A stretch of DNA of 51,249 bases, the filler included, from Dimargaris cristalligena (taxonomy: Eukaryota): assembly GCA_003614675.1 (NCBI GenBank). It is 3 parts of 3 records of this genome, joined end to end, with 100 filler letters (N's around TTAATTAATTAA, not from the genome) between each part and the next. Parts side by side here need not be neighbours in the genome. Positions count along the whole stretch, not along the records: positions 17,154 to 34,154 come from ML002823.1; 2 more parts are not named here. One strand, written 5' to 3'. The stretch's first letter is position 1. Every line of letters starts with the position of its first letter. A program made the position numbers and the translations under genes. Shown here in pieces: positions 20,249 to 35,354 of this stretch. The notes beneath the pieces were generated by a model. It was not told the DNA's origin. It searched no databases and was given only the letters and a program-made list of their open reading frames with translations.

Positions 20249-21229
20249 TTACGAAGAAGTTATATTGTGGTGCTTCCGGGCTCTCTGGTATCCCTCCGCA
20301 TCCAGACAGTCAAACAGACAAGCGTATTCTTTCTTTTCGTGGGGCTTCACAATCGCCAAATACCCTCCGTAATTGGGGGCTTGCAGAATCAAGTTCGGTT
20401 CCGCGGCCAAACGCGGATTGAGCTCAAACACGGTACCGAACCCGACTCCCATATTGACGATAAACGTTGAGCTGTCATGCAGAACCACGTTGCACAGGGG
20501 GGTCGAGGATCGGAGGCTGTCCCGGGTGTTGGTGTGGTTGCGCTTCCGGCGAGCGGCCCTGGGGGTGCCGCCGTTTTTACTGGGATCGGGATCGGTGGTT
20601 AGGAAATCGATCCGTTTGACGAACGACGGGGTTTCGGAATTCTCGGTCGCGGAAGACTGGGCGTTTCGCAGGTACTCGCGGTAGAGGGTAAATATCTGGT
20701 GATCGCGGGCCAACCCCACCAGGCAGAGTTGGTTGGGCACTTGCCAAACTATCTGGGTCAACGTGAAGTCGGGTTCGTGCACCGGGGCGATGGTGGTGGT
20801 AGTGGTAGTGGACGGTGCCTCCGACGAGGCAACCTCGGGCGAGGGGTTCTCGGCGCTTCTAAAGGCCCGACAGTTGAGGTGGGGCACTGGGTTTAGAGGG
20901 AAAATGGATGGTGCAGAAAAGGGTTGGTGTAAGTCCATACGGAAACGGCTAAGTAATGGCCCCGCATGGGCCGGCTTCAACAGCAGCAGAAGTCAATCGG
21001 GAATTTGGCTAGGCTTTGCGTAAAGTCTTCCCATTCGGAGGGTTAGGCCTACAGCTGAATAAGATTACCTACCGTAATAGTAGCGGGTGAAGTAGCGATC
21101 TAGGAAAGTTGCCCCTTCAACGGGGGGAACACAGTCGGCTGGCAAGTCCGACTTGGTGCCAGTCTCCTGCCATGAATCACAGAGCGGCCGGAATTCGTCA
21201 ATAGTGGCTTGGTCGTAAAAGGTGGTCAT
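20249..21229 (-). CDS. ABITRAM/FAM206A (Simiate)-like protein; exons 21229-21073 and 20886-20249, ~264 aa
   Basis: Motifs FLDRYFTRYY, NQLCLVGLA..H, PLCNV, GTVFELNPRL...PNLI....NYGGYLAIVKP parallel the animal family as recalled (DRYFTRWY, NRICVITLA..H, PLCKI, GRLMEVNE, EGYIAVVLP); phase-1 intron. Confidence 0.82.
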
Positions 21230-24661: not shown

Positions 24662-25274
24662 TTAAATGCGGAAATGCGGGCTGTTGGTCTAGGAAGGTCA
24701 ATGGGGAGAAGTAAGTTGGGGACAAGAAAAATGTCAATCGGGGAGAATGGTGGTGTGGTGGGTGGTACACGCGGGGTCGAGGGAACACTATTGGTGAAGG
24801 TAAAGGGGTAATGGGTGGTATAGGTGCACTAGCGAAGCTGTAATGCGTGTAGTAGTAGGGTCCATTAGACGAGACTGTCCTGTAACTGCTCTGTGCGCCA
24901 GAGAACCCTGTAACTGGGAAAATCGGCCAGTTAATACATTATTTTTCAGACCTGTGGCCACTGCTACCCGCAATAGCAGCCTAGTCTGGGCGAACAGTCT
25001 TCGCCATAGTATCCCCCCCACCCCTTCTTCCTCCTGGCCTCCCAATAAAACTTGCCGAGGCATGTTCCGCCCGTTCCCCATACTTACACCACCAAGCTTG
25101 AGAGGGAAAGTCGACGTATACTTTACTTACATACAGGAAGAGAGGGTCTTCCCCCCCTGAGCCACTGTCGCTTACCTTGCTTAGCCTTTTTCCCTGATTG
25201 ACTTATTTCACCGACATATTGTTTCCGGCCCTCCATAGTCGGCTTACTTTCCATCTATCCGCTCTTTATCCAAC

Positions 25275-26918
25275 ATGGCGCAATCCTTCCCTACCTTGGC
25301 CGATATCGTGGGCCGCACTCCCGTGGTCCAATTGGCCGTGGCCAACGACCTGGGCGTCCATCCCAACATCGAACTGTTGGCGAAACTGGAGTACCTTAAC
25401 CCCTTCGGTTCCCTTAGTGACCGGGTGGCCCAAAAACTGCTCCCTACTCTGCCTCCGCCCACCGTGACCACTCCTCCTCCCAGGTCAGGTACCGCTGCTA
25501 CCACCCTCGTGATTCCCTCGTCGGGCAACTTGGCCATCAGCATGGCTGCCCTGGCCGTCCCCAAGGGTTACCGCGTCACCGCCGTCATACCGGAACGCAC
25601 TTCCAAGGACCGCATTATGCTCCTCAAGGCCCTGGACGTGGAAATCGTGCGGGCCCCCGATAATGTCCTGCCCGAAGCCCCCGAAAGCTTTACGTCGTTG
25701 GCCCGTCAGATTACGGCCGAAATGCCCGGGGCGGTCCTGGTGGATTTATTCGCGGGCTCCAACGACGTGGAGAACCTGTACCACGAGTTAGCCACCGAAA
25801 TCTTGGAACAATGCCACGGTCACTTGGATGTGCTGGTCGTGGGCGTGGAGAGCGGGAGTAGCATCACTGGGCTGGCTAAACACCTGAAGCGGAAGTTGCC
25901 CGCTTTGCGGGTAGTCGGGGTGGAACCTACCCAGTCTTATATTCATGAGGGCATCGTCCAGCAGCACCAGCAGGAGCAGCCGAGTTCCGCCGGCCACTCC
26001 CAGCCCATCACCACCACCTCACGGTCGGCCCTGATCTCCCAGAACTGGAAGCTCGAGGATCTGGGCCAGCACGCTATCCCGGCGGCCCTGGATCCCGAGT
26101 GCGTAGATTTGTGGTGCCAAGTCACGGACCAGGTGGCGTATTCCATGGCCCGCCGACTGATCCGATCCGGGTTCCTGGCGGGAGTGTCCTCCGGTGCCGT
26201 TGTGGCCGCTACCCATACGTTCGCTCGTACCAGCATGCAGCCGGGGGAGCGGGCCTTGGTCCTCCTAAACGACACGGCCCGTAACTACGGCTCTACGCTA
26301 CTATCAAACGAGTGGTTGCTGAACCACGAGCTCATGGACGACGGTCTGGCCCGTAAGCTCCATTACCAGCTTATCAATAAGTACCGAGGGGCCAGCGTCG
26401 AAGACCTCCAGCTCCCCGCGGCCGTCGCTATTGCCCCCACCGATCCACTGGGTCAGGCCTTGGATATCATGGTCGAGCGGGAGTATTCGCAGCTTCCCGT
26501 GGTCTCCGCGCCCCACCGTAAACTGGTGGGCTATATTACGCTGGCGACTCTGCAATCCATGCTTGAAAACCAAAAGGTGGAACTGCACCAACCAGTCAAG
26601 GACGCCATGTACACCTTCCGACCCTTGCCATCATCACCACCCTCAGGGACCTCATCTAACCCACAGACCGCTAATGCGTCGGCGTCGGGCCGTGGGCCTG
26701 CTGCCACTACTCCAACCGCTCCCCGCCTAGCCTCAATCCGGCCCCGCTATGAATTGATTACGCCCAGCACTCCGTTGAACGAACTGGCCGAATTCTTTGA
26801 ACATCACAGTGTGGCATTTGTTACTGACTCGTCGCGTAAATTCTGCCTTGGCGTGGTGACTAAATTCGATCTCATGAAGTTCATCTCCCGTCGCCACGGA
26901 ACGGCCCCGGACTTTTAG
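25275..26918 (+). CDS. Cystathionine beta-synthase-like protein (fold-type II PLP domain + CBS/Bateman pair) with degenerate active site, 547 aa, intronless
   Basis: GRTPVV, LLAKLEYLNP.GS..DR, SSGN, VVGVEP, ARRLI..G.LAG.SSGA, D..RNY; C-terminal CBS pair (YSQLPVV...LVGYIT; GVVTKFDL). The catalytic Lys position is Ser. Confidence 0.88.
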   Translation: MAQSFPTLADIVGRTPVVQLAVANDLGVHPNIELLAKLEYLNPFGSLSDRVAQKLLPTLPPPTVTTPPPRSGTAATTLVIPSSGNLAISMAALAVPKGYRVTAVIPERTSKDRIMLLKALDVEIVRAPDNVLPEAPESFTSLARQITAEMPGAVLVDLFAGSNDVENLYHELATEILEQCHGHLDVLVVGVESGSSITGLAKHLKRKLPALRVVGVEPTQSYIHEGIVQQHQQEQPSSAGHSQPITTTSRSALISQNWKLEDLGQHAIPAALDPECVDLWCQVTDQVAYSMARRLIRSGFLAGVSSGAVVAATHTFARTSMQPGERALVLLNDTARNYGSTLLSNEWLLNHELMDDGLARKLHYQLINKYRGASVEDLQLPAAVAIAPTDPLGQALDIMVEREYSQLPVVSAPHRKLVGYITLATLQSMLENQKVELHQPVKDAMYTFRPLPSSPPSGTSSNPQTANASASGRGPAATTPTAPRLASIRPRYELITPSTPLNELAEFFEHHSVAFVTDSSRKFCLGVVTKFDLMKFISRRHGTAPDF

Positions 26919-27287
26919 TTGACCTGTAGCAATGAAATGTAACGCAGACAGATAGTCCTCCAAGTCCATATGGGCGTTTATTAAATCACACTCTCTATTT
27001 ATCCCTCTTTGATGCCTCCATCTTTCATTCTTAGCATCTCTGGTAGAACTATTGGGAATCTAGCTATTAAACTTATACTTGAACATCAGCCCAGCCACTC
27101 ATATTTCTTATAGCCAGGACTATTAAACAAAAAATCCAACATATTCAAAATTATACCCCTATTTTATTTATAGTTATGAGTTGGTATAACATACACTAGT
27201 CGAGGGGGCGAGGAACGGTCAGTTGTTCGATGGTATTCACGGTGTCAACTCCAACGTAGAGCGGAACTTGAGGGCCCTAGAGGTTAT

Positions 27288-27830
27288 TTACTGCATGACG
27301 GGTCCCCGGGGCTGGTTAACGCGCCGGTTGGTCTGGAAGGGCTGGCGGTTCGGGGTGTGTTTGGCGGTCTCGGCCTGGTCCGCATGTTGCATCCAGGCAC
27401 GGTGTTCTTCACGAGCGCTCGCCTCGGCCTCCTGTTTGCGTTGGCGTTCGAGCTGTTCCTCGTGCTGGCGGCGCTGCAACTCCTCCTCAGTTAAATCAGA
27501 GTCGGCGTGAGCGTGGCGGGGGTGGGCTGGGTCAATCTTGGTACTTGGGCCCTTGTCCTCAGAATTACGGCGCTGGGCCTGTGGGTGGTTGCGGTGGGTG
27601 GGAACGCGCATGTTTCCAGCGCGGGCTGGAGGTTGAATGGTACAGTAAAATATCAAGAATAATGGGCATTGTATTAGGGGTGCGCCAGATATTGCTCCAC
27701 ATTTATCAACAGATAGTTTCTAAAGGACGCCAGGGACGGAGGGTAGGAAGCAAGCGGGTTGCCGGGAAGTGGCTATACGTGGTGAAAAGGACTTACTGGC
27801 TGGTAAATGGCCGGCTTTAGTTTCCTGCAT
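27288..27830 (-). CDS. DAP1/DAPL1 (death-associated protein 1)-like protein; exons 27830-27797 and 27625-27288, 123 aa
   Basis: Splicing the 171-nt GTAAGT...CAG intron gives MQETKAGHLPATRAGNMRV, matching DAP1 ETKAGHPPAVKAGGMRI; C-terminal RVNQPR matches DAP1 HIQQPRK (animal motifs recalled). Confidence 0.85.
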
Positions 27831-28062: not shown

Positions 28063-28346
28063 TATTTATAAAGCCCCTGCCCAGGAATCATATGAGTAAA
28101 ACTCACACACCAATATGGACAGTTATGGCAGTTGGCGGCTGAGGGCCAAAGGTGAAATGGCGTGGGGAGGGAAGAGGAGAAGGGCGGGGGGGAGGGCTTG
28201 ACGCAGTCCACACCCCTACACGTTATACACTTCTCTATTTCTATTTCTATTTGTCCCCCCGCTCCGACCCGTACACTCTTCCCTTGACCCGCCGCCGACT
28301 GGGACTGTTTCTGATCGCCCGGCCAATCACGTGATAGTTGCGTCAT
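28063..28346 (-). promoter_or_regulatory. Putative promoter of the DAP1-like gene
   Basis: TATAAATA on the minus strand (28063-28070); TGACGCA elements (28199-28205 on +, 28339-28345 on -); palindromic ATCACGTGAT (28326-28335) overlapping CCAAT. Confidence 0.5.
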
Positions 28347-30691
28347 CTATCCCTTCCCTAGGCCATTGTGACGGGCTTACTGCGGCTGCTCGCGGACGAG
28401 AGGCCCGTCCATAGTGATAATGATATGCGCAGGTGGAACCCCCCGCCCTTGTAGTGTTACGTTTGGTCGAGGTGGACTAGTGTTTAAGGGAGTTGAGTAG
28501 GGCATGGTGTTTTTAAGATATATGTGGCTAACTGGATGGATGGAAGGGTAGGCGTGTTTTATTCAAAAGATGTTCTAATAAAAGTAGTCTTGCGCGGGGG
28601 GGTCCAAGGGCTTGCTTGTCTTGGCCATACCCATCATACCATGTACACTGTATGCGCATGTATTTAGAAAGAAGAACACAGGTAGAAACCACCCCCCTGG
28701 CTTTTCCATCGGGCTGGTCACACGACCCAAGTAGTGATTCCCACAGCGATTCCGGGAGGAACGCGGGTTAATGCGGACTTCAAGAGCACACTTACCCTCT
28801 CTCCTCCTATTGCGCAGTATAGCTTCATGACTGGCTACCCATCATGCTTGAATTCCCATCCGGCTGACCTTGGATATGGAACATAGGTAATCATAGCTCT
28901 TCTTCACTGAAACTGCGTAGGCTATTTTATTTGGAGAGCGGGTTTTCATACTTAGGCACAGTTTCGACGAATGAATAGACTGGTATGGTCTATTATTAGC
29001 AGGACGCTCATGCCCAACAATGGGGTCCTCGTATACCTTAGAGGTGTGTATTGTCTATATTATGGGCTGACTGGCAGGGTCGTTTAGTAGTAGTAGTCAG
29101 ATGATAATGGGGGGGGGATAGATGCTGCAGTGGGAGTATCCTTCGGTCAGGGGTAAGTGTATGTATGTGTGTGTGGCTGTGGGCTCTCTATTCCTATAGG
29201 GCGAGGGGGGGGGCAGTCACATGAGCCGGCTTAGGTGAAAAGGCACAAAGTGTGAGCGATACTCTCACCACACAGTCAATCTCTTTACGTCCCCCAGAAG
29301 CGGTGGCAATACATCAAGGCTAACCTCAAGCCTATAGGAGGTTCATCCTGTAAAGTATGTGCTTTCTTTCGTAAACTCTCTTCGGGCTTTCCTTACCAGC
29401 GCAACCGCCGGAAAGGGCCCATTGCCCAAATAATGATGTGGTTATCCGACCCCTCCGAGGAAAAGGCAATGCCCGAAGAGCAATGCAATAATAATGACCA
29501 GTTAGTTATCAGTCATACTAGACAATAGGGCTGTAAATGGGGCATCATCACGTCGTAACGAAATTCCGAATTATATATCTGAAATTTCGCCTATTCTATT
29601 AATAATAATTCCGTCGCCAGAACTAAGCGCCCTACTCGGCAATCATGGTAATTCCCAGCCCAGCTAGGCTTGAGTGTAATACCAGTTCAGCCGCTAGTGT
29701 GTTATCATCTCCACCCCACGATCAGTAATATTTGTCATGTTCACAACTTGGGGCTGTCCCACTCCAGGTCTGCGCAACTCCATTAACGAGCTCAAGGGTT
29801 GATGCACATTATTGACAAGTACCGGTAGTTTCGGCCGACCCCTTCCCCCCTTCAAGTGTCTCTGGTATTGGCTTTTATTTACAAGTGCTATTCCTCCAAG
29901 AGAATATAAATGTAGAATTGGCCAGCTTAACCCATGACCTCATTTCTATCCCGCGCTCATTGCCATCCCCAGAAAATCTATCCGCTTCTTGAAATATATT
30001 GTTATTCTCACCTTACCCCTTTAAAGGCCCCGTTGCCCTATCCTCTCCTCTATGATTAACCGCCCTAGGTGGCCATAAAATACCCTCTTCAATATGCTCT
30101 CTATAGCACTATACCTACATGAATACAACGATAAGTGTCCAACAAACTCATGTAACTAGTATATATACGAACAAAGTCAGAGATATTATGAAACGGGCTG
30201 TATACGAAAGAGTAGGTAATTTTGGGACCTATGAATGTCATATATAACCATGGTTACATTTTGGGGACGTGTATTACCCATTTGGCACAGCCCGTCAGTG
30301 GCCGGGTGTTATGCGACATGTTGGCTGCGGCGCTTTAACGGCCGACACACACTCCTTTCCATACGAATTCGGGTTGGGGTATCTAGAGGACGTCTAGTCT
30401 AGCCATTAGCTTTGTTTACCAACTACAGACAACACCAATGAAAGGGCCGCAAGGGTTTATAAATGGGGATGGTATATGTGCCCGAGGGGACTTAATGGCG
30501 TGCTGCACCTTTTATCTTACTTTTTCCTCTTAAATTACGAGCGGATCGAAAATCACATTTTCATATTTACAAACCTGCATCTCTGGAACTGCGTTCCCGA
30601 CATATCTCTTTTGTATCCACTTCACCCGGTATGCCCGTAGTGGTCCCGTCGAAGCCCGGTAATTCTCGCCCTTAACCAAGCCCCTCTCGCC

Positions 30692-32607
30692 ATGCTATAT
30701 CGGCACCCCAGCATTGTTGGTCTAGCCACGTTCTACCTCGGCTCAAACCTTCTGGTACTAACTGGCCTACCTATATCCGCAAATGCCTTAAATAATCCGG
30801 CTTGGAGCGAACCCAGCACCAGTAACACCCCGGCTCTGACGGGGTATACTGGGCCGGAGTTGGTGGAAGAGGACTCCGCTAACTCGTCCGCACCGGCCGG
30901 TCAACGGCCCAATATGAACCACCACAGCTCAGCCCCCAGCATTCCCCCTCTAGTGAATCGACTAACGACCCTGCCCACCGAGCTACTGAGCCTGATCATA
31001 AAATATTCTTATAATCGCCGCTCTCGCTCCGAGCTCTTGGGTTCCTCCAAAGTGATCGCTATGCATGCCACCAGTTATATTGAGCGTGGAATCGAGGTAG
31101 GCGTTGGTTCCGGTATTTTTAAGTTATATTGAAATTATCGGTGTTATCTTCTTGCATAGGACTAATGCGGTACCTTATTTATATATAATAACCCAGAACT
31201 TTTTGAAGTGCCTAGGCTAATACGGACTTGCCTTAATTCAGCTGGGAAACATCAGTATTTAACATCATTTGTTAACGGTCTGTATTTGATTTAGAGGGGG
31301 CATCCATATATACAGTACCCCCCGAACTAATCATTCCCCACTTTTTAATCCGATTTCGTCAGCAAACCTACTGGGGCTTGCAATATAACCTCCAAAAATA
31401 CCATAATACCGGCTCATTGTCGCACGGTGAGATTCAAGCAACATTTCACGCTTGGCACCGGCTTCTCTACCACCAAATCGCGGGTAGCCTGCTCAACCTC
31501 TTTGGCAATCAATTCAAAGTACCTATGCGCCTTTTCCAGGACTCCGTCCGTAGCCGACTTAACGTGGTGCGGCTTTCTACAGTTCGTGAGTTGCAGACTC
31601 TTATATTGAATTTCCGGGGAAATTCACTTTTAGCGATGAACGGATGGCAGTTTATTGACCCGGAGAAGCTCTCTCGGGCGACCCTAATCGATGAGTTACC
31701 CCTTTTTGCTCTAGTCGATAGCCAGGGCGATGGACAAGGTGTTTTGGAGGTGTTCAAAACCTTAACGGATCGCTCCCTCTTAAAACTAGCTTCACAGGAT
31801 TGGCCGGTACCCTCTAATTCAAAACTCGATCGAGTGGATTTATTGCGTGAGTGGGTCACTATCTTCCGGGATCCTAGCGCGGATTGGCGCGCCCCCCATG
31901 TCTACAGCCACCTGTACGGCTGTACAGCGGCCATTATGATGTCGCGCTTAGCTACCACGGGCCGAGATAAAGATTTGGTCACCTTCGTAGAGGGACTACA
32001 GGTATACTTAAATGGGCCCTGGCCGGCTCGTTTTTCGATCACGGCGTCGAAGATCCAGCGGTGGGCCCTGATTCTAGCATCCGTGACTCGTCAAGAAGAG
32101 CTGTTATTAAACTTACCCGGTGTTTCGGATGTACGAGATGCAAAACGCCTAACATCCAGTCGCCCGTTGGACGGAAAGTGCGGCTTAGCCTTTGAACTAA
32201 GGGCCCTCGAGCTATTTCATAGTGCCAACTATTTGGAAAACATTCTGAATTGCCCCCCAACCCGATTTAACGTGTTGACCGAGACGGGTAAATTGATTGG
32301 CATTTCCCACATGCTGTTTATTATCGAACAGCTTCGGTTTACTGATGATGGTGGTAGTCTTCGAATGGCAGTGGCTGTCCTCCGACCAGAGTTTGAAGAT
32401 GCCAATTTAACCGGTTCAGCTGATATAAGCCCTTGGCCATACTACAAAAACCTCTGGGGACTTGGTTCGCAATTATCGGATCCTAAGCTATACGACCAGA
32501 TTCAGCGTATCATTGCCGTGGCCTATGGCCAACATGGCGGCGAGCATCGCTTTGTGCAAGCATATGATATTTTGAAAGATTCCCGCGAAGACTTTTCCAA
32601 TCGCTAG
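30692..32607 (+). CDS. Putative secreted protein with an F-box-like motif; exons 30692-31096 and 31363-32607, ~549 aa
   Basis: Hydrophobic N-terminus ending ...LPISANA; LTTLPTELLSLIIKYS; a phase-0 GTAGGC...CAG intron with ACTAAT branch site joins the two ORFs; upstream TATAAAT near 30458. Confidence 0.7.
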
Positions 32608-34154: not shown

Positions 34155-34254
34155 NNNNNNNNNNNNNNNNNNNNNNNNNNNNNNNNNNNNNNNNNNNNTT
34201 AATTAATTAANNNNNNNNNNNNNNNNNNNNNNNNNNNNNNNNNNNNNNNNNNNN
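34155..34254. other. Artificial contig spacer (44 N + TTAATTAATTAA + 44 N)
   Basis: Same 100-nt structure as 17054-17153. Confidence 0.97.
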
Positions 34255-35354
34255 GTGCTCAAAGTTGTCCCGCACAAACTCCAGCGAGTTGAGCAGGGCG
34301 CTGATGGCGGCCAGACGAACCTCCTGACTGGGTTCCTCCTTGCGGGCGCCCTGCACCACGGCAGTCAGAATCTCATTGGCCTGGGTAGCCAGGATTTCGG
34401 GGGCGATGCTCTCGCAGATAAAGCCAATGGTCTGAAGCGAAGATTGCTTAAGGTTGGTATTGTCGGTTTCCATGAAAGAGAGAAGCACTTTAACCAGGTC
34501 CGTCCATTCATTCTGCGGCAGCTCAATGGCGGCGATGGCGGTCGTGACCTGGGCAGCGGCGGTACCGGCCCGATGGTCGGCAGAGCCTAGGGTCTGTAGC
34601 GTAGCCTGCTTAACCTGCAGCTTAGTATTGACATCGATGCTCATCCACTTTTGAGCCAGCTCCTCCTGTCGGGCGGAGTCCTTGGCCGTCATGGTATTCT
34701 TGAGGGCCAGACCGGCGGCAGTCCGCACATGGGATGGGTTCTGCTCATTGACCAGTTCTTGGACTAGCGCCACGGTATAGCCAGACTGGATAACGTAAAG
34801 CCAATTCCCGTGAGATTGGGTTAACGTAGGGCGAGTTGTCGACAAAGGGACACGGAGAAGGGGGAGTACACCAAATTGGGTATTGTCAGGGATAGAGTTA
34901 GCATTTGGCAACGTAAAAGGCTCCAACGGGGCAATACAGATGGGAGATATATATAATAGTAGGGCCGGGATATAGGCAGTTACGTAATAGGCCACTTACG
35001 AAGTTCTCGGCGGCAGCGTTCTCGAGTTTGGAAGTCGCATCCTGCCGGATTTGCGAGTCTGGGGAGGGGTACAGGGGGAGTTTGGGTAGTGGCCCGGTCA
35101 AAAAAGATATAGTCAAAATAGGTTAGTCCTAGCAAAAAACGGGGCGGTTACAGTAAGTTTGAAAGAGGAAGGATAATATACGGCATTGACTATAGGCACT
35201 AGGAATGAAAGAGAGAAAGTGTGTGTATGCGAGGGTGAAAACCACTGATAAAAACACAGGGCCAAGAAGCCCACAGTGGCATATTAGCCGCAGTATTTCG
35301 AGGGAAAGACTAACCTGCTGAAAGAGTATTGGCGAGGATCTCGGCCACGTTCAT
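34255..35354 (-). CDS. KAP95: Importin beta-1 (karyopherin beta), 5' part; exons 35354-35315, 35058-35000, 34785-<34255, truncated by contig edge
   Basis: MNVAEILANTLSADSQIRQDATSKLE...VRTAAGLALKN...IAAIELPQNEW...SLQTIGFICE...NEILTAVVQGARKEEPS.EVRLAA..AL.NSLEFV..NF; intron phases match. Confidence 0.95.

Follow-up and report, generated by a model that had tools for sequence, protein, structure and literature searches.

The described proteins closest to the product of the gene presented here are Dap1b and Dapl1 of vertebrates. In the work of Leesch et al. (PDB entries 7OYA, 7OYC, and 7OYD), Dap1b/Dapl1 is a ribosome dormancy factor of zebrafish and Xenopus eggs. According to their preprint, its C-terminus lies in the exit tunnel of the ribosome, where an invariant glutamine is hydrogen-bonded to the hypusine of eIF5A, and its N-terminal motif crosslinks to Rpl31. 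The same authors describe animal DAP proteins as unstructured, about 15 kDa in size, and rich in basic residues and proline (15%); DAP1 is described there as a substrate of mTOR and a suppressor of autophagy, and zebrafish Dap is reported to be weaker than Dap1b in both the binding and the repression of ribosomes. Dap1b/Dapl1 is presented by Leesch et al. and in other papers as conserved across animals and mainly as a hibernation factor of vertebrate eggs; according to a 2024 review, it is unclear how widely the hibernation factors of eukaryotes are distributed phylogenetically. Here, we describe a stretch of 51,249 nucleotides (the window) from the mycoparasitic fungus Dimargaris cristalligena (Kickxellomycota, Dimargaritales), which carries at positions 27288 to 27830 a two-exon gene for a small basic protein. 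On the basis of its sequence, this protein very probably belongs to the DAP1/DAPL1 (Dap1b) family of animals as a divergent homologue, namely a variant from a fungus.

The kinship to DAP proteins is most evident in the N-terminal block. In alignments, the block KAGHLPATRAGNMRV corresponds to KAGHLPAVKAGGMRV in Xenopus Dapl1-B (7oyc_s1), and zebrafish Dap1b aligns to it as well; across KAGHLPAxxAGxMRV, it shares 12 of 15 residues with the Xenopus protein. The motif can be written as KAGHxPAxRAGxxR[VI]. The N-terminal motif given in the preprint of Leesch et al. is P-A-V-K-A-G-G-M/K-R, within KAGHPPAVKAGGMR[IV]; its counterpart is P-A-T-R-A-G-N-M-R, which has six of nine residues in common with it and shows the conservative exchanges V>T and K>R. 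A comparison of the full-length protein with Pfam gave DAP (PF15228) as the sole family at E ≤ 10 (17.2 bits, E 0.01). An earlier note, made from the sequence alone, had proposed a DAP homologue and a search with hidden Markov models as a check of this claim; the search pointed to this family, but with a score below the gathering threshold of 27 bits. Among the Dimargaritales proteins, the D. verticillata homologue scored highest, with 24.3 bits (E 6.2e-5). Pfam DAP was matched by three of the four; the fourth lacks the residues encoded by exon 1. Exon 2 alone had no Pfam match at E ≤ 10, which indicates that the match depends on the exon-1 residues. Among 177,635 distinct PDB sequences, the sole matches were Xenopus Dapl1-B, at E 0.055 when the single protein was the query and at E 0.0018 when the family profile was used, and zebrafish Dap1b (7oya_s1), at E 0.014. 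Both are the proteins that were solved inside dormant egg ribosomes.

Canonical DAP proteins for comparison were obtained from metagenome contigs, in which a degenerate DNA pattern encoding KAGHPPAx[K/R]AG matched 27 loci. Fifteen of these (L001, L002, L004, L005, L007, L008, L010, L011, L013, L017, L020, and L024-L027) were judged on visual inspection to be chance matches, located in open reading frames that were very short or unrelated, and were discarded. The 12 loci that were kept (L003, L006, L009, L012, L014, L015, L016, L018, L019, L021, L022, and L023) lie on short transcript-like contigs and encode proteins of 98-110 residues with the motif near the N-terminus; as L014 duplicates L006, 11 distinct proteins resulted. 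All of them passed Pfam DAP (best E 2.7e-31), and their consensus is ...LKAGHPPAVKAGGMRI...SG..KGDADFPPEA...IQQPRK. The animal-type middle block is present in each of the 11, so that there is no fungal intermediate among them. Their C-termini vary (QPR, QPRK, QPKK, QPRKQ), and the tail after the conserved glutamine is thus not fixed among canonical members. An hhalign comparison of the Dimargaritales profile with these 11 proteins gave a probability of 96.8% (E 2.4e-10, 28 columns), a value that tests only the fungal N-terminus, because the canonical set had been selected by this very motif.

In a language-model atlas, the neighbours of the protein were a Basidiomycota cluster of 72 members (0.90), a Mucoromycota cluster of 234 members (0.89), and a chordate DAP1 cluster (0.79), which we take as leads and not as proof; residues 40-123 alone led to the same two fungal clusters (0.84 and 0.82). 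Since Pfam DAP is found on 18% of the members of the Mucoromycota cluster, DAP-like proteins of fungi are probably already visible in databases. The sole Pfam family, the sole PDB matches, the hhalign result, and, as leads only, the atlas neighbours are the basis for assigning the protein to the DAP family. The N-terminal block, for which the earlier note had claimed a DAP-type character, is credibly of this type, and its homology to DAP1/DAPL1 is supported by these comparisons.

The gene itself can be modelled from the window. Joining position 27797 to position 27625 yields a coding sequence of 372 nucleotides without internal stop codons, whose product of 123 residues begins with MQETKAGHLPA-T-RAGNMRV and ends with RRVNQPRGPVMQ. 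Exon 1 ends with GCCA, which is followed by the donor GTAAGT, and the intron contains one CTRAY branch-point candidate, 52 nucleotides from its 3' end. In zebrafish, according to a legend of Leesch et al., lesions at exon 1/intron 1 result in products of 18-20 residues, which hints that the animal gene has an exon boundary near the corresponding place. If left unspliced, the frame from the ATG at 27830 reaches a stop codon after 36 codons. This ATG is the first one 3' of a TATAAA box, with none between the box and 27830, and the one other ATG within 470 nucleotides upstream of 27830 is located before the box. The G+C content is 0.64 in exon 2, 0.47 in the intron, and 0.39-0.45 in the flanks; at third codon positions of the coding sequence it is 0.71. 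Within the window the gene is single-copy, and tblastn searches with the three other Dimargaritales proteins matched this place only. The calculated mass of the product is 14.3 kDa and its isoelectric point is 9.8; lysine and arginine make up 17% and proline 8% of the residues, and the grand average of hydropathy is -1.76. Thus, all statements of the earlier note about the sequence, namely a first exon of 34 nucleotides with its ATG at 27830, a canonical intron, and a product of 123 residues, were reproduced. Canonical splice sites, a frame that is open after splicing, a start at the first ATG after the TATA box, and a G+C content that is high only in the exon, together with an independently deposited model of the same structure and homologues with 26 invariant alignment columns, strongly support a real, single-copy two-exon gene.

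The deposited model belongs to another isolate of D. cristalligena. When a collection of 5.8 billion proteins was searched with the exon-2 translation, the single match was KAJ1987275.1 (P0002, H4R33_002926), a 'hypothetical protein' of 123 residues with the same two-exon model, which differs from the window product in two of the 123 residues. No protein identical to the window's version is on record, and the 90% cluster of KAJ1987275.1 has one member. Relatives are the proteins of D. verticillata (131 residues, P0004), D. xerosporica (131 residues, P0005), and Tieghemiomyces parasiticus (105 residues, KAJ1925185.1, P0003); the identity of these homologues is 36-52%. A phmmer search against 1.84 billion representatives gave three proteins at E ≤ 0.001, one of which was the query's own record. 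Word-seeded searches of protein collections, two of them with profiles and one of these scoring 2114 candidates at E ≤ 10, led to no protein beyond the four from Dimargaritales. A scan of metagenome contigs with the back-translated protein pattern resulted in 406 pattern matches, none of which was confirmed by tblastn. The deposited T. parasiticus model starts at a methionine that is aligned to Met 17 of the D. cristalligena protein, as is expected when a tiny exon is overlooked; the exon encoding KAGHxPA was therefore probably missed in this annotation. The gene had been called hidden in the earlier note, because scans for open reading frames would miss the split motif. This applies to the T. 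parasiticus model, but not to D. cristalligena, for which NCBI carries the full two-exon model, albeit unnamed. Tiny first exons which divide a short motif may in this way leave genes truncated, as in Tieghemiomyces, or unnamed.

The second region of resemblance is the C-terminus. The four Dimargaritales proteins end with RRVNQPRGPVMQ (D. cristalligena), RPLNQPRGKVAQ, RRLQQPQPALGI, and RRLQQPQPTLGI; the published animal motif (preprint of Leesch et al.) is I-Q/H-Q-P-R-K/R-x. VNQPR has Q-P-R in common with this motif, the valine in place of isoleucine is conservative, and glycine replaces K/R; an asparagine before the glutamine (INQPR) also occurs in two of the 11 canonical proteins. The relaxed pattern [ILV][QHN]QP[RQK] is found within the last 12 residues of all four Dimargaritales proteins and in 65-108 of 200,000 shuffles per protein (74 of 200,000 for D. 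cristalligena), where it must be considered that the pattern was chosen after the data had been seen and that the four proteins are not independent. When a profile comparison was restricted to the final 28 alignment columns of the two families, VNQPR was paired with IqQPR in the best local alignment. The block NR[RP][LV][NQ]QP is conserved in all four species, and the D. cristalligena protein has GPVMQ after QPR; a 5-residue tail at this place occurs in all four homologues, in agreement with the extension described in the earlier note. From 20 residues before the glutamine to the end, the Dimargaritales proteins contain 0-1 acidic and 4-5 basic residues and the 11 canonical proteins 0-2 acidic and 4-5 basic residues; the remainder of each protein contains 7-16 acidic residues. 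Such an acid-poor tail is what would be expected for a peptide entering the electronegative tunnel. The two blocks occupy the two ends of the protein, in the order and at the positions given in the earlier note. Judged from the sequences, the resemblance of the C-termini is real and lies at the expected place, but it can do no more than lend support after homology of the N-terminus has been accepted.

The middle region was modelled with AlphaFold2 on the basis of the four-sequence Dimargaritales alignment. The program predicted the charged helix listed in the table below, whereas residues 1-57 and 98-123 have low values of the predicted local distance difference test (pLDDT) and are without predicted secondary structure; a charged helical middle that differs from the animal proteins had been anticipated in the earlier note. 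The end of the helix carries the most conserved block of the family, AR[EQ]EH[RH]AW..H.DQ, with the invariant columns Glu 85, His 86, Ala 88, Trp 89, His 92, Asp 94, and Gln 95; canonical DAP proteins have nothing equivalent to this block. Ser 54 is likewise invariant in the four proteins, and the RRNS sequence further upstream is possibly a site for a basophilic kinase. The distance from the N-terminal motif to the glutamine is 98-105 residues in the three motif-bearing Dimargaritales proteins versus 70-84 residues in the 11 canonical DAP proteins.

We favour the explanation that the product of this gene is a DAP-family variant which silences vacant ribosomes in dormant cells, and we assign to it a probability of about 0.5. 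A function in the ribosomal exit tunnel, considered separately and argued from analogy, is at best evenly balanced. In analogy to Dap1b/Dapl1, the polypeptide exit tunnel of the 60S subunit would receive the C-terminal tail from the exit side. Gln 116 would lie beside the hypusine of eIF5A, where a nascent chain has its last residue, and the N-terminal motif would be docked at the tunnel exit, near eL31; in this way, vacant 80S ribosomes would be held translationally silent. As 19 residues separate the helix from Gln 116, the conserved end of the helix would be located in or near the tunnel vestibule, and the constant tail length of 7 residues points to an exact steric fit. The spores of D. 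cristalligena, an obligate mycoparasite, must wait for a host. This makes a role in spores plausible; most plausibly, the setting would be dormant merosporangiospores or starved cells. Release might occur on germination, perhaps by phosphorylation at the invariant RRxS or at Ser 54, which is a speculation guided by the mTOR-dependent phosphorylation of DAP1.

Several observations weigh against this explanation. None of the four Dimargaritales proteins reaches the Pfam DAP gathering threshold, and, in addition to the selection of the canonical set mentioned above, all significant alignments are confined to the N-terminal motif (about 15-28 residues). No homologue outside Dimargaritales was found by the phmmer, profile, and word-seeded protein searches. 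The canonical central block (SG..KGDADFP.EA..H.KP) is absent from the Dimargaritales alignment and was left unaligned by hhalign; in its place, a lineage-specific helix of 40 residues is predicted. With respect to the C-terminus, the strict animal motif occurs in none of the four proteins, and two Dimargaris species have QQPQP, i.e. the arginine is lost. In the comparison of C-terminal profiles alone, 15 of 300 column shuffles reached the observed score, which is marginal; the last 25 residues gave no match in the PDB at E ≤ 10, and in global mode hhalign placed the HLDQA region, and not VNQPR, opposite the canonical C-terminus. Hence, of the C-terminal DAP block claimed in the earlier note, the Q-P-R residues and the placement stand, but not the strict motif. 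Finally, seven residues follow the conserved glutamine in all four Dimargaritales proteins, compared to two to four in the 11 canonical proteins and four in each of the two solved proteins (Gln 109 of 113 and Gln 105 of 109). By analogy, at least three extra residues would need to fit at the peptidyl-transferase centre beside eIF5A, and the geometry at this site cannot equal that of Dap1b.

The same homology evidence also fits a true DAP homologue that acts mainly as a small, disordered substrate of nutrient-sensing kinases (mTOR in mammals), restraining autophagy or signalling starvation, while ribosome binding has been lost or is secondary. In the preprint of Leesch et al., mammalian Dap1 is cited as a phosphoprotein that depends on mTOR and regulates autophagy negatively; none of the four fungal proteins departs from R-R-x-S or Ser 54, and the C-terminal motif has drifted (arginine lost in two of four, longer tail), as if a fit to the tunnel were no longer required. 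However, all four proteins have kept NR[RP][LV][NQ]QP together with the exact tail length, which argues for a constrained docking function of the C-terminus, and the acid-poor basic tail is retained. We consider this alternative unlikely; the two roles are not mutually exclusive. Still less probable is a lineage-specific disordered protein of unrelated function whose resemblance to DAP proteins is due to convergence or chance. The sub-threshold Pfam scores, the short motif that alone aligns, a middle unlike that of canonical DAP proteins, the marginal C-terminal match, and the failure of sequence searches to give intermediates would all be in accord with it. Such an origin is difficult to reconcile with the number of motif positions identical to Xenopus Dapl1, with DAP proteins being the sole matches in both Pfam and PDB, and with the presence of both blocks at the corresponding ends of a protein that is alike in size and composition. 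The rarity of the relaxed C-terminal motif in shuffled sequences, although the pattern was chosen post hoc, and the atlas neighbours, i.e. the Mucoromycota cluster with its DAP annotations and the chordate DAP1 cluster, point in the same direction.

An erroneous gene model is the least credible of the alternatives and, in our view, very improbable. In this case, there would be no gene of the described kind, and either a single-exon protein of 107 residues starting at Met 17 or the antisense frame of 166 codons would be coding. Although the deposited Tieghemiomyces model starts at an internal methionine and a long open frame exists on the plus strand, the canonical GTAAGT...CAG intron joins the two parts of KAGH[LP]PA and its continuation exactly in frame, and deposited models from three Dimargaris species share this N-terminus. 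Moreover, four species have conserved the minus-strand protein, and the antisense frame is without Pfam match; as a gene, the latter was rejected for these reasons. Kinship to Lso2/CCDC124, Stm1/HABP4, or SBDS was rejected as well, since no such Pfam match was obtained at E ≤ 10.

The following table lists the coordinates of the gene, of its motifs, and of other open frames in the window. The cystathionine-beta-synthase-like gene is arranged tail-to-tail with the DAP-like gene and ends about 370 nucleotides from the stop codon of the latter.

Table 1. Position of the DAP-like gene, its elements, and other open frames in the window.
Feature	Positions	Strand	Remarks
TATAAA box	28065-28070	minus	240 nucleotides 5' of start codon
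Exon 1	27797-27830	minus	34 nucleotides; ATG, codons for MQETKAGHLPA, first base of codon 12
N-terminal DAP motif, first half (KAGHLPA)	27797-27818	minus	in exon 1
Intron (predicted)	27626-27796	minus	171 nucleotides, GTAAGT...CTCCAG, phase 1; divides N-terminal DAP motif between A11 and T12
Exon 2	27288-27625	minus	338 nucleotides including TAA at 27290-27288; residues 12-123
N-terminal DAP motif, second half (T-RAGNMRV)	27603-27625	minus	in exon 2
RRNS (R30 R31 x S33)	27561-27572	minus	R-R-x-S invariant in four of four Dimargaritales homologues
Charged helix (predicted), residues 58-97	27369-27488	minus	AlphaFold2, pLDDT about 90
C-terminal block V114-N-Q116-P-R-G-P-V-M-Q123	27291-27320	minus	DAP-like [ILV][QHN]QP[RQ] motif and 5-residue tail
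AATAAA, candidate polyadenylation signal	27163-27168	minus	119 nucleotides 3' of stop codon
Antisense open frame	27320-27820	plus	166 codons, stop-free, no Pfam match; most likely mirror of G+C-rich exon 2
Cystathionine-beta-synthase-like gene	25239-26918	plus	559 codons; PALP (E 2.2e-47) and CBS (E 6e-16)
Importin-beta N-terminal domain with HEAT/TPR_IPO5 repeats	34210-34995	minus	probably one karyopherin exon
Open frame	30641-31132	plus	163 codons; no Pfam match at E ≤ 0.001
Open frame	31276-32607	plus	443 codons; no Pfam match at E ≤ 0.001
Open frame	20249-20992	minus	247 codons; no Pfam match at E ≤ 0.001

In the open-access literature and bioRxiv, we found no link between a fungal DAP protein and the ribosome, and no mention of PF15228 or IPR024130. 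What is new here is the divergent Dimargaritales variant with its helix, its long tail, and its sub-threshold score, together with an explicit functional hypothesis; we see it as a testable lead and not as a demonstrated system. More far-reaching is the idea that the plug formed by Dap and eIF5A in the tunnel is an ancestral hibernation module of opisthokonts, which has survived in early-diverging fungi and silences the ribosomes of their spores. This module would probably also exist in the Mucoromycota and Basidiomycota clusters of the atlas; the added helix would be located at or in the tunnel vestibule, and the tail, longer by at least three residues, would reach further into the peptidyl-transferase centre and the eIF5A pocket. 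Taken as a whole, this idea is a tentative one that draws on the comparison with the animal factors. A DAP variant in fungi would place the module's origin as early as the ancestor of opisthokonts, and spores would offer microbial systems for studying the insertion and release of the plug. Likewise, the longer tail and the added helix would bear on the question of what the tunnel and the peptidyl-transferase centre can accommodate.

A comparison with the known systems summarizes these features. Like Dap1b/Dapl1, the fungal protein is small (about 100-130 residues) and basic, and outside its predicted helix it is probably disordered; it has the N-terminal motif KAGH[LP]PA[VT][KR]AG..R[VI], the motif [ILV]-[QHN]-Q-P-[RK] near the C-terminus, and an acid-poor basic tail. 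In contrast to Dap1b/Dapl1, it remains below the Pfam DAP threshold, a predicted charged helix replaces the canonical middle, and the spacing between motif and glutamine is larger. Further differences are a tail of seven instead of four residues after the glutamine, a glycine in place of lysine or arginine after QPR, and an asparagine in place of glutamine or histidine before the glutamine. With animal DAP1 (PF15228), it has the same two terminal motifs and candidate regulatory phosphorylation sites in common. Invertebrates possess a single DAP gene, and the same presumably holds for this fungus. A functional parallel from fungi is SNOR of Schizosaccharomyces pombe, which is described (PMC13345908) as a factor with an SBDS domain whose C-terminal tail lies in the exit tunnel of dormant ribosomes and contacts the hypusine of eIF5A. 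There is no sequence kinship between the two proteins: SNOR has a folded SBDS-like domain, whereas the D. cristalligena protein has one predicted helix and no Pfam SBDS match. What they would have in common, by analogy, is that each is a fungal factor acting at the same functional site of the ribosome.

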